Made by a program: the position numbers and the translations under genes
Notes under the pieces: model-generated
Database searches by the model: none
Told to the model about the DNA's origin: nothing
What the model saw: only the letters and a program-made list of their open reading frames with translations
Shown: piece after piece, positions 8,033-60,285 of the stretch
How the letters are laid out: the number at the start of each line of letters is the position of its first letter
Numbering within the stretch: the first letter of the stretch is position 1
Assembly (NCBI GenBank): GCA_023379265.1
Contig: JAMCUI010000004.1
Span: 9,273 to 73,272, forward strand
From: Patescibacteria group bacterium
Lineage (GTDB): Bacteria > Patescibacteriota > Microgenomatia > 2-02-FULL-39-11
Reading direction: 5' to 3'
Length of the DNA: 64,000 bases

Positions 8033-8035
8033 TTC

Positions 8036-12258: not shown

Positions 12259-12762
12259 TTAATTCCAATTAGTCAAACATGACGATATGTCCACTTCAGG
12301 AGCTGGGGTTACACCCACAGCTCCTTTAGACCATTCCACTTTTGCCGTAATCTTATACGCCACGGGAGTGGGAGTTATTGTTGCTACCGGTAACGGACAG
12401 TCAGCGGGATTAGAACCGGAAATTTGAAGCGATTGGCCATAAGTTCCTGTCGGTGTAACCGGAACCGGAGTAAGGCCGCTGTTTATGTAGCAAGAGGAAA
12501 AACAGTTAGTAGTGAGAGAGCCCAGTCCGCCCGAATCCCGTATCACTCTTGCACGCTCGATCTGTTGGTTGGCAAGATTGGTAGCGATGCTCTTATTTTC
12601 CGAAAAGATAGAATTTCGTATGGCATATAGTTCAATAGCTGTAATACCGGACATAAACAGTATGATAAGAGTCAGCGCTACCAATACTTCAATCAGTGTT
12701 TGACCGCGTGTTATCAGACCTGCCGAGTCGGAAGCAACTCCTGTGCTAACATCAATGATCAT
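12259..12762 (-). CDS. pilin-like protein with an extended leader (MIIDVSTGVASDSAGLITRG|QTLIEVLVAL)
   Basis: G-QTLIE variant of the prepilin motif plus a hydrophobic helix. Its 5' end lies inside the 78-bp tandem repeat. Confidence 0.6.
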   Translation of the reverse strand: MIIDVSTGVASDSAGLITRGQTLIEVLVALTLIILFMSGITAIELYAIRNSIFSENKSIATNLANQQIERARVIRDSGGLGSLTTNCFSSCYINSGLTPVPVTPTGTYGQSLQISGSNPADCPLPVATITPTPVAYKITAKVEWSKGAVGVTPAPEVDISSCLTNWN

Positions 12763-12975
12763 AAACTTTAATATCTAAGGACACGGTGTTATCAGACCTG
12801 CCGAGTCGGAAGCAACTCCTGTGCTAACATCAATGATCATAAACTTTAATATCTAAGGACACGGTGTTATCAGACCTGCCGAGTCGGAAGCAACTCCTGT
12901 GCTAACATCAATGATCATAAACTTTAATATCTAAGGACACGGTGTTATCAGACCTGCCGAGTCGGAAGCAACTCC
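12709..12975. repeat. 78-bp tandem repeat, about 3.4 identical copies, spanning the junction of two pilin genes
   Basis: Unit starts at 12709, 12787, 12865 and 12943. Each unit carries, on the - strand, TAG, a 12-nt spacer and ATG with 20 further codons, giving the mini-ORF MIIDVSTGVASDSAGLITPCP*. Confidence 0.9.
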
Positions 12976-27525: not shown

Positions 27526-29700
<2,175 letters not shown>

Positions 29701-29765
29701 TGTTATATTAGATATAGCAGAAATAATAAATATATTATAAACAGCCTGATCAATTAGGAGGATAT

Positions 29766-31799
29766 ATGAACAATTACATATTAATGGCGGCGGGAGGAGG
29801 ACTTTTAGCGGTATTATATGGCCTTTTTCTTTCCGCCAGAATTTTCAGACTTCCTTCGGGCACTAAAGATATGCAGGATATATCAGACGCCATAGCCGAA
29901 GGTGCCTCAGCATTCCTCAATAGGCAATATAAAACAGTAGCAGCAATAGCCTTGGTAATATTTGCTATATTATTTTATACACTTGGCCTTCTGTCTGCAG
30001 TTTCTTTTGCTGTTGGAGCCGCCTTTTCAGCCATGGCAGGCTTTATCGGCATGAACGTGTCAGTCCGGGCAAATGTAAAAACAGCCCAGGCGGCCAAAAA
30101 CGGTCTAAGTGACGCACTTGAAGTTGCTTTCAAAGGAGGTTCAGTAACAGGACTAATGGTTGCCGGTCTGGCACTTCTTGCTTTAAGTATAATTTTTTAT
30201 ATAGTCGTAGGAGGAAACCCCTCGGCAGTAAACTTACAACCGGTTGTAACTCTCAGTTTCGGAGCGTCGCTTATCTCTGTCTTTGCCCGTCTGGGTGGAG
30301 GTATTTATACAAAAGGAGCGGATGTCGGGACGGATATGGTCGGTAAAATTGAAAAAGGCATCCCGGAGGACGACCCAAGAAACCCAGGCGTGATTGCTGA
30401 CTTGGTAGGGGACAACGTTGGCGATGATGCCGGAATGGCCGCTGATCTTTTTGAGACTTATGTAGTGACCGCAACCGCTGCCATGCTTTTGGCACAGCTT
30501 ACTATGCCGGGCTTCACAAATGCCCTTGTTTTTCCATTAATTGTCGGCGCGGCGGCCATAGTCACCTCAATTATAGGCACGTTTTTCGTAAAACTGGGCA
30601 AGAACGGGAAAATTATGCCGGCACTTTATAAAGGACTTATAACGACAGCAGTACTTTCGGCCATAGTCTTTTATTTTGTCACAAAGGCAATCATGACAGG
30701 AAACGGCATGTACACAAGCCTTAACCTCTATCTTGCCAGCCTCATTGGAATAATAGTGACTATTGGCATGGTGGCAATAACCGAGTATTACACATCAAAA
30801 AATTATTCACCCGTAAAGGAAATTGCTCAAGCTGCAAATACAGGACACGGGACAAACATAATTGCGGGTCTTGCCATATCGATGAAATCCACACTTTTGC
30901 CAATATTATTGATATCAGCCGCCACACTTTCCGCCTACTATCTTGCAAATCTTTTTGGGATTGCTATTGCTGCAGTTGCCATGTTATCTCTTACCGGAAT
31001 TGTTGTCGCAATTGACGCCTTTGGTCCAATCACAGATAACGCAGGAGGAATAGCAGAGATGACAAACCAGCCGGAAAAAGTCAGGGAAGTAACGGACGCT
31101 CTGGATGCTGTCGGCAATACAACTAAAGCAGTAACCAAAGCCTACGCCATAGCATCGGCCGGTCTTGCAGCTTTAGTCCTTTTTGCCAGCTATACCCAGG
31201 AATTGTCAAAATCCGTAGTCTTAAACACGCTGCAGCTGACAGCCAGTTTTTCTCTCTCTGATCCAAAAGTGCTTGTCGGTCTGCTCATAGGCGCAGCCTT
31301 ACCTTATTTTTTTGGCGCCCTCGCTATGGAAGCGGTCGGGAAAGCTGCTGAAGCGGTAGTAATAGAAGTGAGGCGGCAGTTTAAGGAAATCAAAGGAATA
31401 ATGCAAGGTAAAGCCAAACCCCAATATGGGGTAGCTGTAGATATAGTCACGAAATCAGCATTAAAAGAGATGATATTACCAGCCTGTCTTCCTGTAGCTA
31501 CTCCCATAATAGTAGGATTTATCCTGGGTCCTTATGCATTGGGAGGATTCCTTGTAGGAACAATTGTTACGGGTCTTTTTGTAGCAATCTCCATGACGAC
31601 CGGCGGGGCTGCCTGGGATAACGCCAAGAAATATATCGAAGAAGGCCATTTTGGCGGGAAAGGCAGTCCGGCTCACCAGGCTGCGGTCACCGGCGATACG
31701 GTAGGAGACCCTTATAAAGATACCGCCGGTCCCGCTATAAACCCGATGATAAAGGTAGCAAACATTGTTGCGTTACTGATAGCAGGCTTTATTCATTAA
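29766..31799 (+). CDS. hppA: membrane-bound H+-translocating (V-type) pyrophosphatase
   Basis: [17 protein letters not shown] and [17 protein letters not shown] motifs, about 16 TM helices. Preceded by a Shine-Dalgarno sequence (AGGAGG). Confidence 0.95.
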
Positions 31800-31877
31800 A
31801 AGTCAGGACCTGCCATTAATCCTATGATTAAAGTGGCAAATATTGTGGCTCTCCTTATCGCAGGATTTATACATTAA
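31800..31877 (+). repeat. in-frame duplicate of the hppA 3' end (KS + [23 protein letters not shown]), diverged only at synonymous sites
   Basis: 23 codons give identical amino acids, with 16 third-position or synonymous nucleotide differences relative to the hppA end. Confidence 0.85.
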
Positions 31878-34631: not shown

Positions 34632-35471
34632 ATGAAAATTGACGGCAGAAAAATCGCCTACGGAATAAAAAATAGCCTGAAGAAGCAGGTAAACATCATC
34701 CTTTCTCAAAATATTTCTCCTCATCTTGCGGTAATTATTGTCGGGAAGGATAAAAGTTCGCTTGCCTACGTCAGGCAAAAACAAATAACCGGCGCCGATA
34801 TTGGAGTAAAAGTATCTGTAATATCCTTTCCTGATAATCTGGCGCAAAATAAGCTTTTTTCAGAAATTGACCGATTGAACCAAGATCGGTCAGTCCATGG
34901 CATCATAATCCAAAGGCCTCTACCAATAACCGTAGACAATATAAAACTTGATAAGGCCGTAACTCCACAAAAAGATGTTGATGGCTTTCACAAAAATTCC
35001 TTATTCCGCCCGCCAATAGCCCTAGCCATAATGCATATATTACATAATATATTTAGCACTATAAAAAATGATAAAAATGAAAGTTTTTCCGGCTGGCTTT
35101 CAAAAAAGAAAATACTGGTCATCGGTAGGGGAGAGACTGGTGGTAAACCTATAGCAAATTATTTGATGAAAAATAATTTATCTATAACTATAGCTCATAG
35201 TAAAACAACCGACTTAAAAAGGGCGTGTCTTACCTCGGAAATTATCGTAAGCTGTGTAGGGAAGTCAAACATTGTGCGACATGATATGATAACAAATAAA
35301 ACAATCCTGATTGGAGTCGGACTGCACCCTGAGGATAACAAACTACGGTCTGATTATGATGAAGCTGAAATCGCCCAAAGAGCCGCTTTTTACACACCAG
35401 TTCCAGGAGGTGTAGGACCTGTTAATGTAGCATGTCTCTTTGAAAATCTAGTTAAAGCGTGTAAGATATAG
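34632..35471 (+). CDS. folD: bifunctional methylenetetrahydrofolate dehydrogenase / cyclohydrolase
   Basis: AYVRQKQ ... VIGRGETGGKPIANYL ... TPVPGGVGPVNVACLFENL. Confidence 0.9.
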   Translation: MKIDGRKIAYGIKNSLKKQVNIILSQNISPHLAVIIVGKDKSSLAYVRQKQITGADIGVKVSVISFPDNLAQNKLFSEIDRLNQDRSVHGIIIQRPLPITVDNIKLDKAVTPQKDVDGFHKNSLFRPPIALAIMHILHNIFSTIKNDKNESFSGWLSKKKILVIGRGETGGKPIANYLMKNNLSITIAHSKTTDLKRACLTSEIIVSCVGKSNIVRHDMITNKTILIGVGLHPEDNKLRSDYDEAEIAQRAAFYTPVPGGVGPVNVACLFENLVKACKI

Positions 35472-35628
35472 AAGATTTTACAGATCTACCGGACCTGTTA
35501 ATGTAGCATGTCTCTTTGAAAATCTAGTTAAAGCGTGTAAGATATAGAAGATTTTACAGATCTACCGGACCTGTTAATGTAGCATGTCTCTTTGAAAATC
35601 TAGTTAAAGCGTGTAAGATATAGAAGAT
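35415..35628. repeat. 76-bp tandem repeat x2.8 whose first copy is the 3' end of folD
   Basis: Unit starts at 35415, 35491 and 35567. The last copy is truncated. Confidence 0.9.
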
Positions 35629-36284
35629 TAATACCTCTTATCAATAAACTCCATTTTCCCGTTATCAATCTTTAAGTACTGACCATAACCCCAGCGAATA
35701 AAACCTGTATTTATATATCTCTCCCTTAAATTAAACTCAGCCAGATGACTGTGTCCGCATACCAAAACAGTATTTTCCGGAAGATTGCTATTTAACCATT
35801 TTCTCATCCGGTTATTCTGACTTTTATAATAACTAAGTAGCGGCTTGCCCAAAATGGCCAAAGGTATCTTTTCCCGCAAAAACTGGTAAGCAGCCGTCAG
35901 TATCCGGCCATGAGGCAACCACAAATACCTGTCGTCAGCAGCTGGAGCTATACGGCAACCGTGCTCTATATGCAGGATTTTACCTCCGGCTTTCATTTTA
36001 TATATGTTCCGCTGGCTGACCGAAAAAAGATTCAAACTTTTATCAGACAGGCTTTTCCGGTCATGGTTACCAAAAAGATAAATAGTTTCCCGGGATTTTA
36101 ACAAAGGGAATAATTTTTTCCAGCCGCTTTCGAGAAAATCATCAAGGCTAACAATATACCCATCCCAGAAATCGCCATTTATTATCACTCTATCGGCAGG
36201 AGTGATAAGTCTGGTAAGGAAATCAAATTTAGTCTTTTCAAACTTTTTTGTCAGATGAGTATCTGAAAACACTACGGAAATCAT
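35628..36284 (-). CDS. calcineurin-like metallophosphoesterase
   Basis: VFSDTHL, INGDFWD, GNHD and CGHSH motifs. I chose the internal Met (MISVVFSDTHL) to avoid overlap with the xer gene. Confidence 0.7.
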   Translation of the reverse strand: MISVVFSDTHLTKKFEKTKFDFLTRLITPADRVIINGDFWDGYIVSLDDFLESGWKKLFPLLKSRETIYLFGNHDRKSLSDKSLNLFSVSQRNIYKMKAGGKILHIEHGCRIAPAADDRYLWLPHGRILTAAYQFLREKIPLAILGKPLLSYYKSQNNRMRKWLNSNLPENTVLVCGHSHLAEFNLRERYINTGFIRWGYGQYLKIDNGKMEFIDKRY

Positions 36285-36300: not shown

Positions 36301-37245
36301 TTACTTGCGGTGAAATTTTTGATGAACCTGGCGCAGCTGCGGGTTAGTGACGTGTGTATATATCTGGGTTGTCGAAATATTTTTGTGCCCAAGCATCTCC
36401 TGGATCGAGCGCAAATCAGCTCCGGCTGACAATAAATCTGTGGCAAATGAATGTCTCAGCCCGTGCGGTGTAATCTTTACAGGCAACCTGGCTTTTTTGA
36501 CATATTTCTCCACAATCCTTTGGACTGAACGTACATTCAGTCTTGCCGCCTCATTTTCCCGTCCCGGTGAAGCTTTCCTGCCCGCATAACGAATAAATAA
36601 TGGCGAAAACGTATCCTCCCTTTCCTTCAAGTAGCGCTCAAGCCACAGGACTGCTGAATCTGACAGAAAGACTACCCTAGGCCGTCCGCCCTTTCCTATC
36701 ACACCAAACTCTTTTCTTTCAAGATTTATGGAGTCGCGGTTGAGCCGCGTCAGTTCGCTCACGCGAAGTCCGGTGCTAAAAAGCACCTCTAATATGGCTT
36801 TATCCCTCATGCCCTGGGGCGTAGAGATATTGGGCATATTCAAAAGCCTTTCAACCATCTCCCGATCAAGAAACTTCAGCGATCTGCTCTCCGCCTTTCC
36901 CAACTCTACTTTTTCAGGATTCAGAGTGGGCTTATCCTGCCTTATAAGAAACCTCAAGAAAGCCCTAAGTGCAATCAGATGATAATTTTGCGTAATGTGT
37001 TTGAGAGTCAGACCGTGGTCATCTGAATATCTGGATAAAAATAACCTGTAATCCCTTACCGTTTCTGCCTTTATTGAGTCTGTATCTGATATAGTAGGGG
37101 ATTGCAAGGCTCCAAATTGCAAAAACCTGTTTAGATAATGCCTGTAGTTCCTGATCGTTAACCTCGAACAATTCCGTTCAAGTTCCAAATAGATCAGAAA
37201 CTGATCAATCGCTTCAGATAGCTTCATTCTTACATTTTGCGACAT
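36301..37245 (-). CDS. tyrosine site-specific recombinase, XerC/XerD family
   Basis: C-terminal HGLRHSFATDLLSAGADLRSIQEMLGHKNISTTQIYTHV carries the R-H-R-Y catalytic signature. Confidence 0.85.
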   Translation of the reverse strand: MSQNVRMKLSEAIDQFLIYLELERNCSRLTIRNYRHYLNRFLQFGALQSPTISDTDSIKAETVRDYRLFLSRYSDDHGLTLKHITQNYHLIALRAFLRFLIRQDKPTLNPEKVELGKAESRSLKFLDREMVERLLNMPNISTPQGMRDKAILEVLFSTGLRVSELTRLNRDSINLERKEFGVIGKGGRPRVVFLSDSAVLWLERYLKEREDTFSPLFIRYAGRKASPGRENEAARLNVRSVQRIVEKYVKKARLPVKITPHGLRHSFATDLLSAGADLRSIQEMLGHKNISTTQIYTHVTNPQLRQVHQKFHRK

Positions 37246-38917
37246 CTATATATATTTGTCAAATTTTATCCGTCTTGAACTCATCTCGATATACTCACGT
37301 AACTTCGGTTTGCAATTGAGTTACTCAGTATATACCCCTCATAAATTGCTTCTGTCCGGGCTGGAAAATCAAAGGAACAAAGTGCCAGATTTGGTTAAAT
37401 TACTTCCGGAATGTCATATCAATACGAAAACGCAACAAACCAGTCAAGAAAATTAAAAAGGTGGAAAATCAGAATCGTTGTCAAAATACAGGTTTTAACC
37501 TTCATTCCTGGCCTCCTATAATCGTTTTTGAGGGCTTTAATTTGATTAGGATGTATATTTAGTCATCTTAACCCTAAAAGGTAAGAACCGTTTTATTTAG
37601 TTTGAGAAAATAGCATTTTACATAATAGAAGTTTTGACGGACCTATCGTAAATTTGACGGATAACTGATTTATAAAGAAAAAGAGAATTATAAATAAGAA
37701 AGACAATTCAACAACTTAATTTATAAATATCACTACGAAAATCTAAGCAGATGAATATGGTAAAAATTGGCACTTCTCCGGAGATCCGTGCGTATATATG
37801 TCGCAAAAGATATATTGTGCGACAATATAGCAATCCATATCCCCGGCCTTTTTTTAACGAAAGATTCTCTTCTTTACCTATATCATAAAAATGAGAATAA
37901 ATACCGGGGAAGGTAGAGACTCATACCGGTCAAATCTGCCAGGAATAAATAAACCGTTCGTCATCGAATAACCAATTAACAGTGCTTGCTGGACAGAATA
38001 TGTTTGGTCCATAGAGAGGCTTTCGGTTTTTTTCTTCTCTACACTATTTAGATCTATATAACGCTCTAAACTCATATATCTGAAGCTAAAATTATTATCT
38101 TCTACTTGCATTAAATACGGAATAGAGCGTCATCAAAATCTAAACAACTATTTTCGTGGCTAATATACTCTATTTATCCGATTATCTATATGGAATTATA
38201 CTCAATTTAGCGCATAACAACGCTCTGATTTCTAATTTTTGAGGCTAATCTTTCATTATGCCTTTTCTGTACACGTATTACTAGAGAGCATTATGACGCT
38301 CTAATCCTTTTATTATGAAGCTAAGTATTTTTCGACATTTCTTATTCGTTACTTTAATGTAAGAGTAAAAATAAGTCCTATAGTTTAGGGCTTCGCAATA
38401 GTCCAAATATTTAATTCTAAAGCTAAATCAACTTTCATTTATTATATGAATATCTATGGTATAGAGCATAATGATGCTCCATTCTCTCTTTATTTAAGCT
38501 AATAGGAAAACTGTAAACCTCTATACGGATAATTGCTATAAAATATAGTTTAGGGCTTTATTAGGCTCCATAGCAATCACGTTGAGGCTAATTTTTTGGT
38601 ATTTTAGGATAATAAAGATAGTATAGAAGGTCATGATGCTCTAAACTAACAATGTTATGCGTAATTAATTTGTTCAGTCAGGCATATGTGTTTTCACTTA
38701 CACTTTGAGAGTGATACCGTGAAAAGTCGGTACAAATATTCGTGAAAAGTTATCCACATTACTATAGGATACTATAGGCTTTTGTACCATATCAAACTAT
38801 ATCACTACTCTACTTCCCCATTCCCGCCACAACTTTTAAATTTCTTTGGACTAAATAAATTCTTGATAATAAAACTTCCTAATTCTAAATTGGAAATTAA
38901 AAATTGAAATTAACCGG
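37246..38917. other. 1.67-kb ORF-free AT-rich region with a degenerate palindromic repeat family, one perfect DnaA box and an inverted duplicate of the xer gene 5' end
   Basis: No ORF of 80 aa or more in any frame. Imperfect palindromes of form tAGAGCnnnATGAyGCTCtaa recur about nine times between 38060 and 38650. TTATCCACA at 38750-38758. Confidence 0.6.
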
Positions 38918-39763
38918 TCAACCCCAAGCTGTAGTAACAAAAGCCACCAGGAAGGTAAAAATAAAGGCAAAAATATATTCCCGCACCGTGTTGGCAAAAA
39001 GCCTATCCTGGATTTTCTGCTGCAATATGCCTACCATCGCATAAAAACCAGACGCCACAAGAAGAGACACTGTAGATATCTGGATCGGCCAGAAAGAAAT
39101 TACCATTGCCAATTCCCCTACTAATATTCCGATAATGACGGAATATGATATTGCCTCATTTGTAAGTTTTGATTCTAAGTTTACTGACCAAATAGACTGC
39201 AGAGACAAAAGTCCTGCAAAAGGAGACAATATAAGCATATTTGCCCAAAATGACATCCTGAAGGAGAAAACTATACTAGTCAAAAGAAACATGACAATAA
39301 GAGTAATAAGAAGCCCAATGCTTTGCGCCGCCCGCAAAAGTTGTATAGATCTCTCTGCGGCTACGTTATATATATTTTCTACCAGAAGATAAGCATAAGT
39401 TCCAATAGCAAAAACAGTTGCTATGGTCAACCTGATAATCCAGCGTGCTGGAAGCAGATAATAAAAAAGTGATACCGAGGCTGTAAAAACAACAGGAAGT
39501 ATAAATAAAAGCAACCACTCTGTTCCTCTTATGTCTTCAGCAAGAGACCAGGCAGTCAAAATGTACGACGCAACAGCAAGAAGCCCAACCATATAAAACC
39601 TGTAATCCTCCCAAACAAGCTGGGTCAAAAGAAGACCTCCCGATAAAATGAGCGTCTGGAGGGCAAACCTCTGTCTTTTAGAAAGGGAGTCCAATAAATC
39701 CCAATGCGGAATAACCCTCTCAAAACGTTTCTTCTTCTTTGGTTTTATATGAAAGTAGTTCAA
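38918..39763 (-). CDS. hypothetical polytopic membrane protein
   Basis: 281 aa with about 7 TM helices. No motif recognised. Confidence 0.5.
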   Translation of the reverse strand: MNYFHIKPKKKKRFERVIPHWDLLDSLSKRQRFALQTLILSGGLLLTQLVWEDYRFYMVGLLAVASYILTAWSLAEDIRGTEWLLLFILPVVFTASVSLFYYLLPARWIIRLTIATVFAIGTYAYLLVENIYNVAAERSIQLLRAAQSIGLLITLIVMFLLTSIVFSFRMSFWANMLILSPFAGLLSLQSIWSVNLESKLTNEAISYSVIIGILVGELAMVISFWPIQISTVSLLVASGFYAMVGILQQKIQDRLFANTVREYIFAFIFTFLVAFVTTAWG

Positions 39764-41626: not shown

Positions 41627-42739
41627 TCATTTAACAAAATCCTCACCTAATACTACTTGAATATCTGTCTGGTTGCTCATGTCTGAACTATTTCCAATCT
41701 CTGATATTTTACACCCGTACCTTTTTTTGAGCTTCGTCACTATATAACTGGTCTTTAGGCTATCTTTTGTAAAGTATATCACGCATGCAAAAGAAACATC
41801 ATTTTGGGCGGTAGTAGTTACCAGAACATTGGCCCCAATATTCCGCAGTATTTTACCAAATTGACCAGCCAGTTGGTTTTGTCCCGAAGCGTTCACAATT
41901 TCCAATGTTACATTTTCCGTACGGATGGCTTGATCCTGAAAGTTATCCTGTATGACTGACGCTAAAATATCTGTATCTATCACTTTAACTGAAGTACCGT
42001 CAGGCAACTTATCATCGCGCAAAACGCTTCTGTCCCCCAGATTTACAAGTCTTATCTGGTCGCTACGAAGACTGGCGATGGATAAATATAATCGCATCAG
42101 ATCCATTTTTGTCAGATTTGTATCCAAAGTATTTGCCCCTGTAAAAACACCCAGCGCTATACCAGGTAATTTCAGGAAAGAAAAATATTTACTTTTATAT
42201 GCAGCTATATCCTTTGAGGATTTTATCGGGAAAGGAAAAGAAACTCCTTTTGTGGCAATATACCCGTCTATAAGAATGTCAAATGAATTCTCTACGCTCC
42301 TTTCCAAAAGCACTCCCGCTGGACGTTTCTTGTCTAATTCACCAAGTTTATATACCGATGAGGCTTTATATTCACCATAACCATAAGGGACATAAAGCAT
42401 TGTTTCTTCCGGAATTACAGCTATATAAGCCTGCCGTTTTACGGGGTCTATCGTAAAAACTGCCATCGGATCGGAATTCAAAACTACAGTCAGACGGTTT
42501 GAACCATCCCATTTGTTTAGATTGTTTAGACTGATAAATCCGGAAAGCAAAAGTATGATTGCCAAACACCAAATTATCAATTTTGGGATACGCTGTCTGG
42601 GGTTTGACTTTCCCCCGCCAACTCGTACCTTAAAGCTTCCGGATCTGTTTGTAGTTCGTCTCATAAAATTGACATCCGGACCAGCTTTGAAAGATATAGG
42701 AAAAATAAGTGAAACAAAGATTAGCAGCTTGTTCCACAA
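41627..42739 (-). CDS. LytR/CpsA/Psr (LCP)-like envelope protein, putative
   Basis: Membrane anchor, then a periplasmic domain. The C-terminus (ENVTLEIVNASGQNQLAGQFGKILRNIGANV) resembles a LytR_C domain. Assignment is tentative. Confidence 0.45.
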   Translation of the reverse strand: MWNKLLIFVSLIFPISFKAGPDVNFMRRTTNRSGSFKVRVGGGKSNPRQRIPKLIIWCLAIILLLSGFISLNNLNKWDGSNRLTVVLNSDPMAVFTIDPVKRQAYIAVIPEETMLYVPYGYGEYKASSVYKLGELDKKRPAGVLLERSVENSFDILIDGYIATKGVSFPFPIKSSKDIAAYKSKYFSFLKLPGIALGVFTGANTLDTNLTKMDLMRLYLSIASLRSDQIRLVNLGDRSVLRDDKLPDGTSVKVIDTDILASVIQDNFQDQAIRTENVTLEIVNASGQNQLAGQFGKILRNIGANVLVTTTAQNDVSFACVIYFTKDSLKTSYIVTKLKKRYGCKISEIGNSSDMSNQTDIQVVLGEDFVK

Positions 42740-43042
42740 AATTTTGTCTCCTGAATCAGCTTTGAGAAACGTATGAAAATCAAATGAACGCAGTACTAGT
42801 CCGCTTATTCCTCATCTTTGCCCTTTTTTATTATCTCAACTCTGGGCAAAACGAAGGATTGTTTTTGAGATAGAATTTGAGCTTTCTTTTCAAGGATGGA
42901 TTTTTTGGCTTTTTTCTTGTCCCCCTTGAAAAAACCTCCAAAATTTCCCATATGTCTAATTTTATAATCCAGTCAAGCAAACGTCAATATTTCAATCCTG
43001 AACATACGTATGAAAGCCAGATAATTGTCATGCCGAACTTGT

Positions 43043-44878: not shown

Positions 44879-45611
44879 AGTCTTTTATCTTCTCCAGGCT
44901 GGACAAAGTATCCTGTAAATCTTGTGGGAGCTCACTCTCCAAAACCAACGCTTCCTTCCTGTATGGGTGCATAAATTTTATGTATTTGGCGTGCAAAAAT
45001 AAGCGCCCACAAAACTTTTGATCTCTACGGTAAACTTTCCTTCCTGCATAAAGATTATCCCCTACTATACTATGCCCTATATATTTAAGATGAATTCTGA
45101 TTTGGTGAGTCCGGCCGGTATGCGGAAATGCAGTAAGTAATGTATATTTTTCCTGGCCCAAAGATCCGTATAAAGATTCGCATTTATATAAAGTTATCGC
45201 CTCTTTTCCACCCGGTAAAACGCCAAACTTTTCCCTGCTCCATGGCAACCTGCCTACGCTTGCTTTTATTTCCCCACTTATAGATGGCATCTGCCCATGC
45301 ACAAGAGTAAAATATCTTTTTTCTATTTCCCTCTCCTTAAATTGTGTCTGCATGAGCTTAAATGTTTCGGGGTCTTTAGCGATAATAAGTAATCCTGATG
45401 TCTCCTTGTCCAGTCTATGCACTATACCTGCTCTGGAAATAAAATCATTTGCTTCATTAACCGGAAATTGAGAATTGAGAATTGATAATTTTCTCTCCGC
45501 CCAATCCTGTATAGTTTCCCCCTTTACCGATTCAGCTCTGTTGACAACCACACCAGAAGGTTTTTCCACTACCAATAGATACCCATCCTCAAATACTATC
45601 TTTATTTCCAT
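44871..45611 (-). CDS. RluA-family 23S rRNA / tRNA pseudouridine synthase
   Basis: Catalytic motif GIVHRLDKETSGLLIIAKD. Confidence 0.85.
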   Translation of the reverse strand: MEIKIVFEDGYLLVVEKPSGVVVNRAESVKGETIQDWAERKLSILNSQFPVNEANDFISRAGIVHRLDKETSGLLIIAKDPETFKLMQTQFKEREIEKRYFTLVHGQMPSISGEIKASVGRLPWSREKFGVLPGGKEAITLYKCESLYGSLGQEKYTLLTAFPHTGRTHQIRIHLKYIGHSIVGDNLYAGRKVYRRDQKFCGRLFLHAKYIKFMHPYRKEALVLESELPQDLQDTLSSLEKIKDYD

Positions 45612-49871: not shown

Positions 49872-50054
49872 AATTTTTAGAATAACTGAAAATTAATAAA
49901 TTGTAGGATTCTTCTGGCAGGAATCAATTATTTGACTTATACTACTTATACAAAATATAATCGGGGGAGTCAATAAAACGGGTTGTTTAGTGGTCAGTCG
50001 TTTGTAGTTGGAGTTGGTTTTTTGTTTATTCTTTGTTATTTGTTCTATGAAATA

Positions 50055-50081
50055 GCCGAGGTGGCGGAATTGGCACCCACC
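50055..50081 (+). pseudogene. 5' fragment (acceptor arm plus D-arm) of a degenerate type-II tRNA, here called tRNA-B
   Basis: GCCGAGGTGGCGGAATTGGCA... Its acceptor 5' strand GCCGAGG is complementary to CCTCGGC at 50233-50239. Confidence 0.5.
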
Positions 50082-50088
50082 TAAATAT

Positions 50089-50175
50089 GCCGCGATGGTG
50101 GAATTGGCAGACACGCAGCTCTCAAAAAGCTGTGAGCCCAAAGCTCATGTCGGTTCGACTCCGACTCGCGGCACA
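50089..50175 (+). tRNA. tRNA-Leu(CAA), type II (long variable arm)
   Basis: Acceptor GCCGCGA/TCGCGGC, D-arm GTGG..CAC, anticodon stem CAGCT/AGCTG with loop CTCAAAA (anticodon CAA), variable-arm stem GAGC/GCTC, T-arm GTCGG-TTCGACT-CCGAC. Confidence 0.85.
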
Positions 50176-50180
50176 ATTTT

Positions 50181-50240
50181 TGGCTGGTCAAAAACCTGTG
50201 GGCCTCAAAGCTCATGAGGGTTCGAGTCCCTCCCTCGGCA
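50181..50240 (+). pseudogene. 3' portion (anticodon-loop region, variable arm, T-arm, acceptor 3' strand) of degenerate tRNA-B
   Basis: T-arm GAGGG-TTCGAGT-CCCTC is intact. The acceptor 3' strand CCTCGGC matches the 5' fragment upstream of tRNA-Leu. The anticodon stem does not pair. Confidence 0.5.
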
Positions 50241-50307
50241 CTTCGATCCGACATAATGTCGGGCCTCAGTGTAGGCACGAATGTCACACGGTTGTCTAGC
50301 CCATCAT

Positions 50308-50612
50308 TCTATCACCTGAACTACAAAATCTATGCACTCTGTTCCGTTTCAGCTGTCTTTTCCATACTGTAGAACCTTATTCTATCACCTGAACTACAAA
50401 ATCTATGCACTCTGTTCCGTTTCAGCTGTCTTTTCCATACTGTAGAACCTTATTCTATCACCTGAACTACAAAATCTATGCGCTCTGTTCCGTTTCAGCT
50501 GTCTTTTCCATACTGTAGAACCTTATTCTATCACCTGAACTACAAAATCTATGCGCTCTGTTCCGTTTCAGCTGTCTTTTCCATACTGTAGAACCTTATT
50601 CTGTCACCTTTG
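50308..50612. repeat. 73-bp tandem repeat x4.2 covering the dnaB 3' end. Each copy encodes ...MEKTAETEQSA* on the - strand
   Basis: Unit starts at 50308, 50381, 50454, 50527 and 50600. Copies 1-2 versus 3-4 differ by a single synonymous change (AGT versus AGC). Confidence 0.9.
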
Positions 50613-51889
50613 AAAATAAGGTCTATCTCCCCCAAAGCTCCGTTTCTGTGCTTGGCGATTAGAAGCTTGACTATCTGATGATCCCATTTCTCCAACTCTT
50701 GCTCCTCACGGTATAGAAACATCACTACATCTGCATCCTGCTCTATGGCACCTGACTCACGAAGATCCGCCAACTGCGGCACCTTCGTACCTCTTGCTTC
50801 AACAGCACGTGAAAGCTGGGAAACAGCAAGTACCGGAATCTTTAATTCCCTGGCAAGATTTTTTAAGGATTGTGACACTATCGATACTTCCTGCACCCTA
50901 TTATCATACCGGCGGCCGGGGTCTACCAGCTGCAGATAGTCAACAATAAGAAGTTTCACGTTGTGACTTACCTGAAGCCGACGGGCCTTAGTCCTCATTT
51001 CAAAAAGATTTATACCCGGCGTATCATCAATAAAAATTGGCGCTTCGGATAGCTCCCCCATCGCTTCTGAAAGCCTAGTAAAATCATCATCATTTAGTCT
51101 GCCGGTTTTCAGCCTCCAGGCATCTACATCAGCCTGCGCTACAAGTAACCTATCTACTAACTCTTCCTTGCTCATCTCCAAAGAAAATATGCCGACAGCC
51201 TGCTTTTGCGCCAGCGAAACGTACTGGGCAATATTTAGGACAAAAGCTGTTTTTCCTTGTCCTGGACGGGCGGCTAGTATCACCAGGTTGGAATCCTGCA
51301 GTCCAGCCAATTTGTTGTCTAAATCGGAAAATCCTGTAGGCACGCCCCGAAGTGATGAACCTCTCTTGTGCAATTCATCCAGCCTGTCAAAGCTTTCCGC
51401 CAGCGCATCCTTCACCTGTACAAAATCCTGTCTTGATCTTTTCAGAGCAATGGACAATATGTCGCTCTCTGCTTTATCAAGAAGCATCTTTACATCCGAC
51501 TGGTCACCAAAAGCAGACTCACTTATCCTGCCTGAACTTTCGATGAGACGCCGCTTGACATAGTTATCCGTCACTATATTGCTGTATACCTCAATATTGG
51601 CAGAAGTGGGTACGACATTGGTCAGATCTGTCAGGTATGCTGTGCCTCCAACATCCTTGTATTTGCCCATTTTTTTCAGTTGTGAGGTAACAGTGACGAT
51701 ATCAACCGGCTCATGCCGCTCAAAAAGAGCCATCATCGCGGCATAAATATGATTGTGTGCATCCTTATAAAAAAATTCCGGCCTGAGGAAATCAACCACA
51801 TCTGCCAAAGCGTCTTTATCAATAAGTATGGCACCCAACACACTGGCTTCTGCCTGCTCATCATGAGGGGGTATTCTTGCTTCAGCCAT
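50549..51889 (-). CDS. dnaB: replicative DNA helicase DnaB
   Basis: Walker A ARPGQGKTAF, Walker B LLIVDYLQL, and DnaB N-terminal domain ILGAILID. Confidence 0.9.
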   Translation of the reverse strand: MAEARIPPHDEQAEASVLGAILIDKDALADVVDFLRPEFFYKDAHNHIYAAMMALFERHEPVDIVTVTSQLKKMGKYKDVGGTAYLTDLTNVVPTSANIEVYSNIVTDNYVKRRLIESSGRISESAFGDQSDVKMLLDKAESDILSIALKRSRQDFVQVKDALAESFDRLDELHKRGSSLRGVPTGFSDLDNKLAGLQDSNLVILAARPGQGKTAFVLNIAQYVSLAQKQAVGIFSLEMSKEELVDRLLVAQADVDAWRLKTGRLNDDDFTRLSEAMGELSEAPIFIDDTPGINLFEMRTKARRLQVSHNVKLLIVDYLQLVDPGRRYDNRVQEVSIVSQSLKNLARELKIPVLAVSQLSRAVEARGTKVPQLADLRESGAIEQDADVVMFLYREEQELEKWDHQIVKLLIAKHRNGALGEIDLIFKGDRIRFYSMEKTAETEQSA

Positions 51890-52075
51890 AGTTCAACTCC
51901 AGTGGAAATTTAACTAAAATTAAAAACTGCTCATCATGAGGGGGTATTCTTGCTTCAGCCATAGTTCAACTCCAGTGGAAATTTAACTAAAATTAAAAAC
52001 TGCTCATCATGAGGAGGTATTCTTGCTTCAGCCATAGTTCAACTCCAGTGGAAATTTAACTAAAATTAAAAACTG
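51854..52075. repeat. 73-bp tandem repeat x3 covering the dnaB 5' end (start codon plus the first 12 codons plus 5'UTR)
   Basis: Unit starts at 51854, 51927 and 52000. The third copy has a GGGGG to GGAGG change. Confidence 0.9.
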
Positions 52076-52087
52076 CTGTTTTGACGT

Positions 52088-52111
52088 TTGAGTTTTGAGA
52101 TTTGAGATTTT
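52088..52111. repeat. imperfect heptamer repeat (TTTGAGA-like x3.5), the same motif as in the pilin leader at 14545
   Basis: tttgagttttgagatttgagatttt read directly. Confidence 0.7.
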
Positions 52112-55078: not shown

Positions 55079-56161
55079 ATGAAAGAAAGATTGGACAGGC
55101 TCAGGCGTATTCTCATCGTAGAAAAGCTTGGTGCTCTTTTTGTCACCGATCAGGCAAATGTCACTTATCTTACTGGCTTTGCCGGGCTTTCCCCGCATGA
55201 ACGGGAGGGTTTCCTTTTCGTCACAAAAAAAGATGCATATTTATTGACTTTCCCTACATACTTTGGCCTATATAAAAAGGGTTCAGACAGTTTCAAAACA
55301 GTAAATATTACTCCCGTACATAGACTGACCGACTACCTAAATGAAATTACTCAAGGCCAAAAAATAAAACATGTTGGGGTGGAAAAAGAAAACCTGACAC
55401 TGTCCGAAATGGAATCGCTTAAGGCAAAAACTGAATTTGAATTCCGGGAAACCGCCGGCCTGGTCGAGAAGTTGCGAGAAATAAAGGATGAAGAAGAAAT
55501 CGGTTATATCAGCCAGGCGGCAGCGATAACGGATGACGCTTTTGAGTTTATCAAGACAAAAATAAGAAAAGGCGTTACCGAACACGGATTGGCGCTCGAG
55601 TTGGAATTTTTTATAAAGAAAAAGGCAGACGACATCGCCTTTTCCCCCATCGTGGCGTTTGACGAGAATGCGGCAATCCCACACTATCTTCCAAACAAAA
55701 AACAAATAACAAATAACAATTTAATACTTTTAGATTTTGGAGCTAAGATACACGGTTATTGCTCTGACATGACACGAGTAGTCTTTTGGGGAAGTCCCAA
55801 AAACGATAAAATAGTCACAATTTTCCAAACAGTTCTTTCAGCGCAAGAGGCGGTTATGTCGCATCTGAGAATCGGTAAAACTGGCCATGAAATAGATATC
55901 ATTGCCAAAGAGATAATAAAAAATGCCGGATTTCCCGAGTATTTGCACGGATTGGGACACGGAGTGGGATTAAACATCCATGAAGCCCCCAGGCTGAAAA
56001 AGGACAGTCCTGACATTATGACAAAAAACATGGTCGTGACTGTGGAACCGGGCATTTATATAGAAGGCTTTGCTGGCACAAGAATTGAAGATTTGGTAGT
56101 ATTAAAGGAAGACGGAATTGAAATATTGTCCAAGTCGGATAAAACGTTACAGATAATATGA
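55079..56161 (+). CDS. M24-family Xaa-Pro aminopeptidase / prolidase
   Basis: HGLGHGVGLNIHEAP and the pita-bread-fold metal ligands. Confidence 0.85.
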   Translation: MKERLDRLRRILIVEKLGALFVTDQANVTYLTGFAGLSPHEREGFLFVTKKDAYLLTFPTYFGLYKKGSDSFKTVNITPVHRLTDYLNEITQGQKIKHVGVEKENLTLSEMESLKAKTEFEFRETAGLVEKLREIKDEEEIGYISQAAAITDDAFEFIKTKIRKGVTEHGLALELEFFIKKKADDIAFSPIVAFDENAAIPHYLPNKKQITNNNLILLDFGAKIHGYCSDMTRVVFWGSPKNDKIVTIFQTVLSAQEAVMSHLRIGKTGHEIDIIAKEIIKNAGFPEYLHGLGHGVGLNIHEAPRLKKDSPDIMTKNMVVTVEPGIYIEGFAGTRIEDLVVLKEDGIEILSKSDKTLQII

Positions 56162-57367: not shown

Positions 57368-58324
57368 ATGCTTTATGACTTCTCTAAAACCGTCCAAACA
57401 AAGACAATGCAGAAAATCTTATCCAAAAGTCATAATAGGGCGATCCTTGCTCTTATTGTCGCCAACAGTATCTGGGGTGCCGCCTCTCCTATATTCAAAC
57501 TGGCTCTTGAAAATATCCCGCCTTTTACCCTTGCTTTTTTCCGTTTTTTCGGCGCCATGGCAATCATTTTCCCTTTTGCCGTAAACGACTTCTGGATAAG
57601 GAAAAAAGACTGGCCCAACCTCATCTTCCTTTCCCTTTGCGGCATCACGGTAAACATCACTTTCTTCTTCTGGGGACTGCAGGAGGCTCCGGCTATAAAT
57701 GCGCCGATTATAGCTTCCTCTGGACCAGTATTTATATACCTTTTTGCAGTATTGTTTCTCAAAGAAAAACTCCACCCCAAAGTATTATCAGGAATAATGG
57801 TTGGCCTTACCGGAGTTCTAGCTATCGTCCTGCAACCAGTATTTACCCATGAGCCTGACGGGCGGATCCTGGGAAACATTTTCTTCGTCATTGCCACTCT
57901 GGGTACAGTAGGATATGTCATTTTCAGCAAAAAAATTGTGAAGTATTATAATGCTGCCACGCTCACTTTCTGGTCGTTTCTTATCGGCAGCCTGACGTTT
58001 TTACCCATGTTTATATGGGAAATGAGAAACCTCCATCCCTTTTACACGATCGATTACCGCGGTTGGATTGGCCTGGCCTTTGGCATATTCCTCTCCTCCG
58101 CTTTAGCTTATTTCCTTTATGAATGGAGTATAAAAAGTCTCCTAGCCCAGGACGTGGGAATATTTACATATATCGATCCGGTTGTGGCGGCAATTATTGC
58201 GGTACCACTATTGGGAGAAGTCATCACACCAATTTACCTCCTGGGATCATTTCTTGTCTTTGCCGGCATCTATGTAGCCGGGGGCCGTCTGCACTGGCAC
58301 CCGATACATTGGTTAAAGAGGTGA
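57368..58324 (+). CDS. DMT-superfamily (EamA-like) transporter
   Basis: 10 TM helices in two EamA-like halves. Start is taken at the ATG just after the hisS stop. Confidence 0.7.
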   Translation: MLYDFSKTVQTKTMQKILSKSHNRAILALIVANSIWGAASPIFKLALENIPPFTLAFFRFFGAMAIIFPFAVNDFWIRKKDWPNLIFLSLCGITVNITFFFWGLQEAPAINAPIIASSGPVFIYLFAVLFLKEKLHPKVLSGIMVGLTGVLAIVLQPVFTHEPDGRILGNIFFVIATLGTVGYVIFSKKIVKYYNAATLTFWSFLIGSLTFLPMFIWEMRNLHPFYTIDYRGWIGLAFGIFLSSALAYFLYEWSIKSLLAQDVGIFTYIDPVVAAIIAVPLLGEVITPIYLLGSFLVFAGIYVAGGRLHWHPIHWLKR

Positions 58325-58464
58325 CTTCTGCTGCACTGGCACCCGATACATTGGTTAAAGAGGTGACTTCTGCTGCACTGGCACCCGATACATTGGTTAA
58401 AGAGGTGACTTCTGCTGCACTGGCACCCGATACATTGGTTAAAGAGGTGACTTCTGCTGCACTG
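58289..58464. repeat. 42-bp tandem repeat x4.2 whose first copy is the 3' end of the DMT transporter gene (…LHWHPIHWLKR*)
   Basis: Unit starts at 58289, 58331, 58373, 58415 and 58457. Copies are identical. Confidence 0.9.
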
Positions 58465-58507: not shown

Positions 58508-58715
58508 GCCGGAATGGTGGAATTCTGCTTTACTTCACAGCCTAATCGGCCGGAATGGTGGAAACCGGCCGATTGACTCGGTAAAAGCTAATCACCAACC
58601 TCTGATTTACAACGTTCGGGAACTGGCCGGAATGGTGGAAACCGGCCGATTGACTCGGTAAAAGCTAATCACCAACCTCTGATTTACAACGTTCGGGAAC
58701 TGGCCGGAATGGTGG
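58508..58715. repeat. 77-bp repeated hairpin element (stem GGCCGG / CCGGCC, loop aatggtggaaa) x2.2, plus a partial copy upstream
   Basis: Unit starts at 58548, 58625 and 58702, with a partial copy at 58508. Confidence 0.85.
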
Positions 58716-58773
58716 AAGCAGGCTCGATTGCTACTCTTCCCTTCCTGCAAAATAAATGGTATAATCTACTTTT

Positions 58774-59082: not shown

Positions 59083-59094
59083 ATTCGTATTAAA

Positions 59095-59190
59095 TTATTA
59101 GGTATTACGTATTAAGTATTGAATTAAGAGATAATTTTCCAAATACTTAATACTTGATACGTAATACTTAATACGATTTTTTTATTTATG
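59095..59190. terminator. long imperfect AT-rich palindrome built from gtattaagtattg / caatacttaatac units; a hairpin-capable element downstream of rpmE
   Basis: Inverted repeats read directly. Confidence 0.35.
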
Positions 59191-59255
59191 ATGTTGCAAT
59201 AATTGAAAGTTGGAGGAGCAGCAGTAGATACAAAAGTTAATTTTACTCACGGATT

Positions 59256-59640
59256 ATGAATAATGATATTGTTATATTAGAAATCCATGGGGCAACAGCT
59301 GACTCGGTCATTTTAGAAATCCATGGGGCAACAGCAGATATGTTAGTATAATTGTTTAACGGATTATGAATACTGACTCGGTCATTTTAGAAATCCATGG
59401 GGCAACAGCTGACTCGGTCATTTTAGAAATCCATGGGGCAACAGCTGACTCGGTCATTTTAGAAATCCATGGGGCAACAGCTGACTCGGTCATTTTAGAA
59501 ATCCATGGGGCAACAGCAGATATGTTAGTATAATTGTTTAACGGATTATGAATACTGACTCGGTCATTTTAGAAATCCATGGGGCAACAGCTGACTCGGT
59601 CATTTTAGAAATCCATGGGGCAACAGGTGGTGATGAAGCC
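59256..59640. repeat. nested tandem duplication of the release-factor gene 5' end. The outer unit is repeated 3 times and contains a 36-bp inner unit ([12 protein letters not shown]) present in 2, 4 and 2 copies
   Basis: Inner-unit starts at 59265 (variant), 59301, 59375, 59411, 59447, 59483, 59557 and 59593. Upstream mini-ORFs are 59256-59351 and 59366-59533. Confidence 0.9.
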
Positions 59641-60285
59641 AATATATGGGCTGCTGACCTCTTACGCATGTATATGCGTTTTGCCGCTTCCCGCAGCTGG
59701 AAGGTAGATTATCTGGACGGGGAAGTAATAAGAATAAAAGGCCCGCAGGCCTATACCCTTCTTCAGTTTGAAGGAGGAGTACATAGAGTACAAAGAATCC
59801 CCAAGACAGAAAGATATGGCAGAATTCATACTTCAACAGCCACAGTAGCGGTCTTACCGGAAATTGAAGAGACTCAAATTTATATAAACCCGCAGGATAT
59901 AGAATGGGACTTTTTCCGAAGCGGCGGACATGGCGGACAAAATGTCAACAAGGTCGCAACAGCAGTAAGGCTCAGACATAAACCTACTGGAATTGTGGTT
60001 TCTGCCCAAAGGGAGAGAAATCAGGAACAGAACCGCCGGATTGCCATGGGACTTCTTCGTTCCAAACTTTGGGAGATTGAAGAAGAGAAAAAAATGCAAA
60101 CACTGTCAAGCGCCAGATCCCTTATCGGCCGGGGTATGAGGGCTGAAAAAATAAGAACCTATAATTTTCCCCAAAACAGGGTAACTGATCACCGCATAAA
60201 CAAAAGCTGGCATAACCTGGAAGATATAGTCGAAGGGAAACTGGACAAGATGCTTTCTACTCTGTCTGAAGCCGCAAACCAATAA
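59548..60285 (+). CDS. prfA: class-I peptide chain release factor, RF1-like (PxT-type), lacking N-terminal domain 1
   Basis: [13 protein letters not shown]...[19 protein letters not shown] (PxT-type codon-recognition loop) and the GGQ motif [12 protein letters not shown]. An in-frame stop lies 6 codons upstream of the first copy of the start. Confidence 0.75.

Follow-up and report, generated by a model that had tools for sequence, protein, structure and literature searches.

Tandem arrays of near-constant unit length at dnaB and other gene ends in a Candidatus Gottesmanbacteria genome

Introduction

Tandem duplications of tens of base pairs, formed between direct repeats of 3–12 nt and afterwards expanding or contracting, are well known from slipped misalignment in Escherichia coli and from yeast rad27/FEN1 and E. 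coli polA 5'-nuclease mutants. To our knowledge, the lengths in these slippage and flap spectra are broad, and a fixed length near 75 bp has not been reported among them. Second copies of gene 3' ends also arise at the attachment (att) sites of integrative elements, which lie in tRNA genes or in icd (e14, phage 21). Here we analyze a 64,000-nt stretch of DNA (the window; positions 9,273 to 73,272 of contig JAMCUI010000004.1, assembly GCA_023379265.1) in which dnaB bears a tandem array of 73-bp units at each end and other genes bear similar arrays. The organism, uncultivated and of groundwater type, falls within Candidatus Gottesmanbacteria (candidate phyla radiation, CPR/Patescibacteria) in a scan that took one genome from each species.

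Supply and colleagues are said to have found in 1997 that some mycobacterial interspersed repetitive units (MIRUs) carry short open reading frames (ORFs) overlapping the neighboring stop and start codons. In the Mycobacterium tuberculosis complex, the variable-number tandem repeat (VNTR) loci of the MIRU and exact tandem repeat (ETR) types consist of 40–100-bp units in tandem at gene junctions, with a copy number that varies among close isolates, while the same junctions in relatives outside the lineage comprise only a few bp (PMC2734929). The arrays presented below resemble MIRU-VNTR loci in unit size, in gene-junction position and in being restricted to a lineage. They differ from them in that MIRUs form one dispersed sequence family, whereas here each locus duplicates its own gene end.

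A second comparison is offered by the repeats of Borgs, the extrachromosomal elements of Methanoperedens. Passages of their description portray these repeats as perfect, genome-specific and fast-evolving, with copy numbers that vary within populations; some begin inside the end of an ORF, and the arrays are flanked by partial repeats, so that no source is apparent for the middle of the unit (PMC9879509). The same passages state no single preferred unit length (PMC9879509), and the comparison made here does not extend to the length distribution.

Results

A 73-bp array at each end of dnaB

The product of the ORF flanked by the two arrays is DnaB (Pfam DnaB_C, 6.7e-100; DnaB N-terminal domain, 4.2e-34; coordinates of this and all other features in Table 1). 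The initial annotation of the window, made from the letters alone, had reported 73-bp units at both of its ends, and recounts by Tandem Repeats Finder (TRF) and by a separate repeat search gave 73 at either end. Copy 1 of the 3' array (50609-50537) is the true gene end, its stop codon lying at 50551-50549. This copy and three further ones each encode RFYSMEKTAETEQSA followed by TAG, that is, the last 15 codons plus the stop, and a 12-nt partial copy terminates the array. The single synonymous change that had been noticed between copies 1-2 and copies 3-4 is a serine codon, AGC in the two gene-proximal copies and AGT in the two distal ones.

The 5' unit was likewise found in three copies, each with the ribosome-binding region, the ATG and 12 codons, but its leader, first counted as 36 nt, is 37 nt long: the unit consists of this leader with GGAG, 7 nt, and then the ATG and 12 codons (MAEARIPPHDEQ), 37 + 36 giving 73. 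The three ATGs stand at 51889 (the real start), 51962 and 52035, and the distal copy has one synonymous base change (CCTCCT vs CCCCCT). Since 73 is not divisible by three, translation from either upstream ATG cannot continue into dnaB; the two ATGs open 26-codon upstream ORFs (uORFs, MAEARIPPHDEQFLILVKFPLELNYG followed by the stop) at 52035-51955 and 51962-51882, the TGA of each overlapping codons 2-3 of the next copy. Judged by this geometry, termination-reinitiation coupling would fit at least as well as the ribosome sequestration considered initially.

The 5' and 3' units have no sequence relation to each other, as had been proposed. Short direct repeats lie at the borders of both arrays, AGCAG at the 5' array and the imperfect 11-nt GGTGA[C/T]AGAAT at the 3' array. 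Promoter and terminator signals within the dnaB units were no higher than shuffled expectation. The TTTGAGA-type heptamer tract noted directly upstream of the 5' array is present, and its position is conserved both in a sister strain and in a more distant relative, L002 (see below).

Two observations concern the surroundings of the 3' array. A near-consensus sigma-70-type promoter (TTGACT, 18 nt, TATAAT) at 49932-49961, upstream of the tRNA-Leu cluster, is aimed at the array, which accordingly sits between convergent transcription units. The convergent layout of dnaB and tRNA-Leu(CAA) is kept across Microgenomates (L002, L005, L051, L075).

Arrays at other genes

The arrays had initially been presented as a feature of dnaB. 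This does not hold, as arrays of the same kind occur at many other genes in the window and in the lineage. The TRF run that found the dnaB pair returned five further long-unit perfect arrays in the window, and all of the window arrays, when checked against the ORF map, cover a gene terminus or an intergenic spacer. With units repeated head-to-tail at periods of 73, 73, 76, 77, 78, 42 and 74/36 (97-100% matches by TRF), they have the unit size of about 10-100 bp that characterizes VNTRs. Identity between copies is 100% in four of them (12708, 35415, 58289 and the 182-bp repeat at 59277), and their partial terminal units are 5-63 nt long.

In the pilin array, the repeated 34-nt part encodes GVASDSAGLIT in both adjoining proteins. 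Were this array to collapse to a single copy, the two genes would become fused; its minimum viable state therefore holds the 34-nt repeat twice. The 78-bp array gives the C-terminus of one pilin-like protein (GVASDSAGLITPCP, then the stop) and the leader peptide of the next (MIIDVSTGVASDSAGLIT-RGQTLIEVL). The 42-bp array has short direct repeats at its borders and is a single copy in L002. The 77-bp array contains a GGCCGG/CCGGCC hairpin, and its first part recurs once more, in diverged form, 40 nt upstream. In the compound array at the release-factor (RF) gene, a base unit of 74 nt (31-nt leader plus 43 coding nt) is combined with an in-frame 36-nt sub-repeat, the 182-bp period being 74 + 3 x 36. 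The RF gene itself (59548-60285) is short: its 245-aa product has PCRF and RF-1 domains, apparently misses the usual N-terminal domain, and carries an in-frame 12-aa duplication that is the product of the sub-repeat.

Unit sequences were then compared all against all. Every pairwise score among nine units, on both strands, fell within the shuffled range; homologous units at different loci, as in MIRUs, were thus not found, and shared ancestry of the units would not explain the 73-78 cluster across unrelated sequences. What the units do contain is the conserved coding end of the host gene itself (IPPHDEQ of DnaB, GPVNVACL of FolD, the end of the H+-pyrophosphatase, H+-PPase). At the Rfam gathering threshold tRNA was the sole match, and the array units matched no family. 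Hairpin-driven slippage was rejected, since eight of the nine units are less structured than their shuffles (DNA folding z +0.5 to +1.5).

Copy number in close strains

A protein identical to the window's DnaB is encoded in a sister metagenome-assembled genome (MAG), GCA_023487465.1, contig JAMDBJ010000009.1. Over about 46 kb, and with one block (7705-9700) excepted, this MAG and the window agree at 99.8-100%; in all, the analysis covered about 85 kb of this species. Copy number is unequal at six of the seven arrays common to both (Table 1), and the sister strain does without the extra dnaB 5' copies. It thus varies between close strains, as in VNTRs, at six of seven arrays and also at site I, an array past the window end, although the exact counts hinge on short-read assemblies. 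All strain indels of at least 4 nt are unit-sized, apart from one of 4 nt and two, of 37 and 49 nt, in a stretch poor in ORFs. Site I has 2.7 copies in the sister strain and a single copy in the window's own strain (Logan contig L166), which indicates that gains and losses go both ways. In the dnaB 3' array all window copies read TTTTGTAG and all sister-strain copies TTTTGCAG; such a copy-wide fixed difference is a signature of concerted evolution.

Logan contigs cover parts of the window, those of SRR10278331 being 100% identical to it and those of SRR10267473 and SRR10252151 about 99.9%. Contig ends of SRR10278331 and SRR10267473 fall inside arrays (pilin, RF), others at short repeats such as a heptamer tract, and a contig starting just 3' of recR begins within the recR array.

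Diverged copies in a relative, and lineage restriction

The closest other relative is L002 (CAZFNL010000018.1), with a DnaB protein 99% identical and DNA about 88-93% identical. No perfect array was found in its 18.6 kb. Its dnaB flanks are nonetheless duplicated in diverged form. Upstream of dnaB, a diverged second copy (ATGGCTGAAGCAAGAATACCTCCCCATGACGAGCAA) stands at an offset of 73; its borders, its 26-codon uORF and the stop overlap are those seen in the window, and its first 12 codons differ from those of the window by four synonymous and no nonsynonymous changes. Downstream, a diverged second copy lies at an offset of 74, both copies comprising 16 codons including the terminal stop. The RF 5' site has three or four such copies, offset by 73-74. 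That the relative carries diverged copies where the window has its arrays indicates that the duplications are real and old and, as diverged copies share no k-mers, that they are not assembly loops.

Outside the focal clade, a targeted test found duplicated dnaB ends in none of 158 Microgenomates dnaB loci. The test set held 161 loci from genome and metagenome scans, three of them from the focal clade, and the only loci with duplicated ends were the sister strain (L001) and L002. A metagenome scan for near dnaB relatives gave none above 81% identity. In a Levyibacteriota locus (L050) an 87-bp array follows dnaB; it lies inside an ORF and was set aside as a feature of another kind. A literature search on tandem repeats in Patescibacteria or Gottesmanbacteria found no relevant report.

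Near-constant unit length

From the identical period of two unrelated units, a length-defined copying process had been proposed in place of sequence-driven slippage. Such a process is supported, and on far wider evidence than the dnaB pair alone offered. Eight unrelated perfect arrays have periods of 73-78 bp (73, 73, 74, 75, 76, 76, 77 and 78), periods of 42 and 36 forming a minority, and diverged duplications, obtained with an offset scan more sensitive than TRF, have offsets of 67, 69, 71, 75 and 78, besides 35 and 34. Offsets of 67-78 account for 13 of the 16 short duplications of the focal lineage and for 5 of 68 in controls (Fisher p = 6e-9), the latter spreading over 20-295 bp. The controls were 159 other Microgenomates loci (1.77 Mb) subjected to the same scan. 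Duplication density is also higher in the focal lineage, with about 220 events per Mb vs about 38 per Mb. This near-constant length across unrelated sequences is real and points to a physical ruler in the initiating step.

The exclusion of slippage, on the other hand, fails, because short direct repeats occur at several unit borders; in view of these, misalignment is likely to be still part of the mechanism. In being head-to-tail, tens of bp long and bounded by direct repeats, the arrays resemble the slippage and flap duplications described above.

Anatomy of the repeat units

Four arrays (12708, 35415, 58548 and site I of the sister strain) have the form X-Y-X-Y-X, in which a repeated part X alternates with a spacer Y of 13-48 nt; the spacer sequences include that of site I (Table 1) and TTACAGATCTACC. 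The sum X + Y is constant at 75-78 although X and Y each vary. In the single-copy allele of site I, the sole one seen, X is joined straight to the downstream sequence and no Y is present. Because such an allele could stem from X-X recombination, insertion with filler is not proven by it. No second occurrence of the Y sequences was found in the window or in any fetched locus.

The same puzzle over the origin of the unit middle attaches to Borg repeats, as far as the available passages describe them. Perfect, genome-specific arrays with partial flanking repeats were found here too, and they are missing from the 159 control loci. The strong adenine enrichment of Borg units was not, the base composition of the units being 24-37% A and similar to T. 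The two further differ, according to the same passages, in that Borgs are archaeal extrachromosomal elements and the present arrays lie on a bacterial chromosome, and in that about half of the Borg repeats stand inside ORFs as amino-acid repeats, with units strongly A-rich.

Diverged duplications, the H+-PPase gene end and a nested tRNA-Leu

Two of the diverged duplications are of a particular kind. The second copy of the H+-PPase end begins in frame after TAA plus AAGTCA and comprises 72 nt encoding the same 23 aa and a stop. There are 18 base differences between the copies, affecting 17 codons; all 17 codon changes are synonymous and none is nonsynonymous, an outcome that did not occur once in 200,000 random simulations. 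A spare copy in decay should not be expected to look like this. The terminal GFIH is restricted to this lineage among the closest homologues. At the tRNA-Leu site, an older tRNA-Leu is split into a 5' (50055-50080) and a 3' (50183-50241) fragment, and between these, set off by 8-nt linkers, lies an intact tRNA-Leu(CAA) (50089-50174). Spliced to each other, the two fragments agree with the L002 orthologue in 80 of 87 positions; the intact tRNA differs at 14 positions, with compensatory stem changes. The nested arrangement is found likewise in the sister strain. In-place duplication and decay would hardly produce either case; capture of, or replacement by, a diverged functional allele would fit both.

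Protein searches for outgroups that might reveal the ancestral state at folD and the H+-PPase gene returned closest matches of only 58% (FolD) and 80% (PPase) identity, at which that state is unreadable. The heptamer GGACCTG occurs at only four independent sites in the window when the repeats of the folD array are counted as one, and two of these sites start unrelated units (the second PPase copy at 31806 and the folD array at 35415). As a shared border motif it was treated as a codon coincidence; it encodes Gly-Pro-Val in folD and Gly-Pro-Ala in PPase.

The only block in which the two otherwise nearly identical strains diverge (7705-9700, the region of a sulfatase gene) is about 70% identical; its right boundary is sharp and close to the gene start (~9650), and the left one lies past the sequence compared. 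A block of this kind between near-identical strains indicates that highly divergent DNA has been imported. The idea that arrays act as recombination breakpoints was rejected, because the SNP (single-nucleotide polymorphism) density profile places this sole divergent block away from all arrays.

Comparison with att sites, CRISPR and diversity-generating retroelements

A nearby second 3' end with mainly synonymous differences, and tRNA fragments beside an intact tRNA, recall the att sites of integrative elements. Here, however, no element lies between the copies, which are only 6-8 nt apart (PPase 6, tRNA 8 on each side), duplication affects 5' ends as well, three or more identical copies are found in most arrays, and the sole tyrosine recombinase gene (36301..37245) adjoins no array. 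A CRISPR array (clustered regularly interspaced short palindromic repeats) does not match either, whole units being identical, including the part between the repeated gene ends; the genes called in the sister-strain and Logan loci, which between them span the greater part of the window but not the whole, include none with a cas domain. Nor do the H+-PPase differences have the character of a diversity-generating retroelement, 17 of the 18 being at third codon positions with all four bases involved, and the Pfam lists for the called genes of these same loci (again most, not all, of the window) contain no reverse transcriptase domain.

Table 1. Arrays, duplications and associated features. Positions refer to the window unless a locus is named. 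X, repeated part of the unit; Y, spacer; PPase, pyrophosphatase; MBL, metallo-beta-lactamase
Feature	Position	Strand	Description	X (nt)	Y (nt)	Copies, window	Copies, sister MAG
dnaB coding sequence	50549..51889	minus	ORF, 446 aa; same protein encoded in GCA_023487465.1				
dnaB 3' array	50306..50609	minus	TRF: period 73, 99% matches, score 587			4.2	3.2
dnaB 5' array	51854..52077	minus	TRF: period 73, 99% matches, score 441			3.1	1
Imperfect heptamer tract (TTTGAGA type)	52078..52110		TRF; between MBL-fold hydrolase gene stop and dnaB 5' array				
Pilin array	12708..12975	minus	78 bp; stop of one pilin-like gene to start of next	34	44	3.4	2.4
folD array	35415..35629	plus	76 bp over folD stop; gene end plus spacer	63	13	2.8	1.8
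42-bp array	58289..58464	plus	42 bp over EamA-family gene stop			4.2	3.0
77-bp array	58548..58730	plus	77 bp; intergenic, EamA-family gene to rpmE	29	48	2.4	2.4
Compound RF array	59215..59629 (TRF 59277-59626)	plus	over release-factor gene start			182-bp block present	one 182-bp block absent
recR array	L165 3646-3796		sister strain, ~3-4 kb past window end; 76 bp x 2.0, recR stop				
Site I array	L165 4060-4263		sister strain, past window end; 75 bp x 2.7, FeS-assembly gene stop	54 (gene end including TAG)	21 (TTGAGTAATATGAATTCATTC)		
gyrB 3' end duplicates	29541..29701	plus	offsets 71 and 35; KSATLDI, KSAALDI and KSATLDT, each before a stop				
H+-PPase 3' end duplicate	31728..31877	plus	offset 78				
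Duplication at 5' end of ORF 41627..42739	42678..42788	minus	offset 75				
hisS/EamA junction duplication			offset 69; offset scan				
tRNA-Leu duplication	50055..50241	plus	offsets 34 and 67				

Other repeats in the window

Imperfect heptamer tracts are common in intergenic spacers, at 59087-59174, 14544-14577, 45466-45490 and 55693-55719 in addition to the one upstream of dnaB (52078-52110); a Logan contig ends in the tract at 14544. After rpmE, facing tracts of GTATTAA x 4.7 and AATACTT x 4.7 would form a long hairpin, and L002 has an analogous facing pair built from different heptamers (GCGTAAA type). The stretch 37245-38918, 1.7 kb without a long ORF, adjoins the tyrosine recombinase gene; it holds weak direct repeats spaced 73, 76 and 89 bp and the strain-specific indels of 37 nt (37353) and 49 nt (37443). 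It could be what is left of an element, or else an array that has decayed.

Discussion

The arrays are VNTR minisatellites by the definition used for bacteria; what is new in them is the near-constant unit length across unrelated sequences and the density of events at gene ends. As to their origin, we think it rather probable that they are genuine minisatellites peculiar to this lineage, which arose through local template switching with a putative ruler, were homogenized unit by unit, and were filtered by selection to gene-end and intergenic sites. The process would start with the head-to-tail duplication of a local stretch of about 75 bp or, in a minority of cases, of about 34-42 bp, the initiating event being most likely replication template switching or a slipped or flap misalignment between short direct repeats. 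Arrays would then gain and lose whole units via slippage or unequal sister-strand exchange, the unit-wise character of the change being visible in the strain comparison, and whole-unit gain and loss would keep the copies identical. In a tightly packed genome, in which about 84% of random 75-bp segments would land inside a gene, survival would be limited to duplications leaving one intact reading frame; elimination of those that break an ORF would leave arrays that straddle a start or stop codon or sit between genes. At dnaB, the 3' copies would be untranslated spare ends between dnaB and the convergent tRNA-Leu gene, and the 5' copies would add the two uORFs, each ending 5 nt into the next copy.

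More tentatively, and as an idea to which we give clearly less credence than to the minisatellite account as a whole, the lineage might possess a copying or repair step with a built-in ruler, which would duplicate any local sequence in portions of about 74 +/- 3 bp or, in a half-size class, of 34-42 bp, and would sometimes leave a diverged but still coding version of a gene end next to the resident sequence (PPase, tRNA-Leu). Possible rulers are an undescribed enzyme or a single-strand flap or loop of fixed size wrapped by protein. Speculatively, the latter could be an SSB tetramer with its two binding modes (35 and 65 nt, plus a junction); as pure conjecture, such a wrapped flap or loop would agree with the two size classes and with the unstructured units. 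An SSB of 199 aa is encoded beside rpsF and rpsR in the sister strain. If a ruler of this kind operates, there would be about one hypervariable array per 8 kb.

Several points weigh against this account. The X-Y-X-Y-X form would not be predicted by plain contiguous tandem duplication without an extra deletion or recombination step, and the H+-PPase copy and the nested tRNA fit imported alleles better than duplication in place. The evidence for the putative ruler consists of the lengths themselves. Moreover, counts above two are taken from short-read assemblies and may not be exact, and at all six differing arrays the higher count is that of the window, not of the sister MAG, a bias that the handling of loops by each assembler could partly explain.

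The strongest of the other explanations, which we nevertheless regard as unlikely, is that short pieces of homologous DNA from siblings or diverged relatives, taken up through a competence-type pilus, are captured beside the resident sequence, with imprecise recombination joints at conserved gene ends. It would account directly for the purely synonymous divergence of the H+-PPase copy and for an intact tRNA-Leu with compensatory changes between fragments that resemble L002. The 2-kb block of about 70% identity shows that divergent DNA does enter these genomes, a T2SSE/T2SSF/prepilin-peptidase/pilin cluster is present in the window, and an X-Y-X form with a spacer of no visible origin fits insertion. 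What capture fails to predict is that in most arrays the copies are 100% identical and strain differences amount to whole units, as expected from slippage, and that the dnaB and RF 5' arrays are simple contiguous duplications with border repeats of 5-6 nt. Moreover, no donor sequence was found, and the fixed length of about 75 bp would be left without a reason.

Somewhat less plausible still is that the arrays are maintained for a function, the 5' copies tuning the expression of dnaB and RF through uORFs or translational coupling and the 3' copies serving as spare ends or as spacers between convergent genes. L002 has indeed retained the second dnaB 5' copy with its uORF, its stop overlap and only synonymous changes, the spare H+-PPase end is conserved at protein level, and for M. 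tuberculosis a correlation of expression with repeat-region length upstream of fpg has been described (PMC2734929). Selection for such roles is difficult to reconcile with single-copy alleles in strains of about 99.8% or closer identity (dnaB 5' in the sister strain, site I in the window strain) and with unequal copy number at nearly all shared arrays; besides, the units at different genes have no common motif, and those of dnaB lack promoter or terminator signals.

That the arrays are artefacts of short-read assembly, arising from de Bruijn graph loops near the k-mer size, we hold to be very improbable. Periods of 73-78 do lie near common k values (77, 79) and near half of a 150-nt read, arrays exceeding the read length are uncountable from short reads, and the bias in copy number toward the window points the same way. 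The existence of the arrays is, however, attested by the diverged copies of L002 at the same sites and offsets, by five diverged duplications within the window at offsets of 67-78, and by ordered SNPs among the copies within arrays. Arrays are present in two MAG assemblies, two additional runs yield Logan contigs that end within them, and the 73-78 cluster is missing from control loci of the same assembly kinds. As regards existence, an artefact is thus largely refuted. Finally, a dispersed mobile repeat family of the MIRU, REP (repetitive extragenic palindrome) or MITE (miniature inverted-repeat transposable element) type inserting at gene junctions, which the unit of about 75 bp and the junction location would recall given the 40-100 bp of MIRUs (PMC2734929), has next to no probability and is refuted for the sequence in hand by the all-against-all comparison, in which no pair of the nine units clearly exceeded shuffled controls, and by units built from each host gene's own coding end.

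The formation of tandem repeats in bacteria is usually viewed as sequence-driven slippage without a preferred length, whereas here a dozen unrelated sequences have been copied at close to a single length. In practice, the arrays interrupt assemblies of short reads where genes end and present gene callers with spurious alternative starts and stops; they also serve as strain markers for CPR populations. As far as the published passages on Borg repeats allow the comparison, the arrays are a bacterial counterpart to those unexplained repeats, including the puzzle over the origin of the unit middle. Since close strains and a sister species are both available, events can be ordered in time, and the birth step of minisatellites becomes open to study in this lineage.

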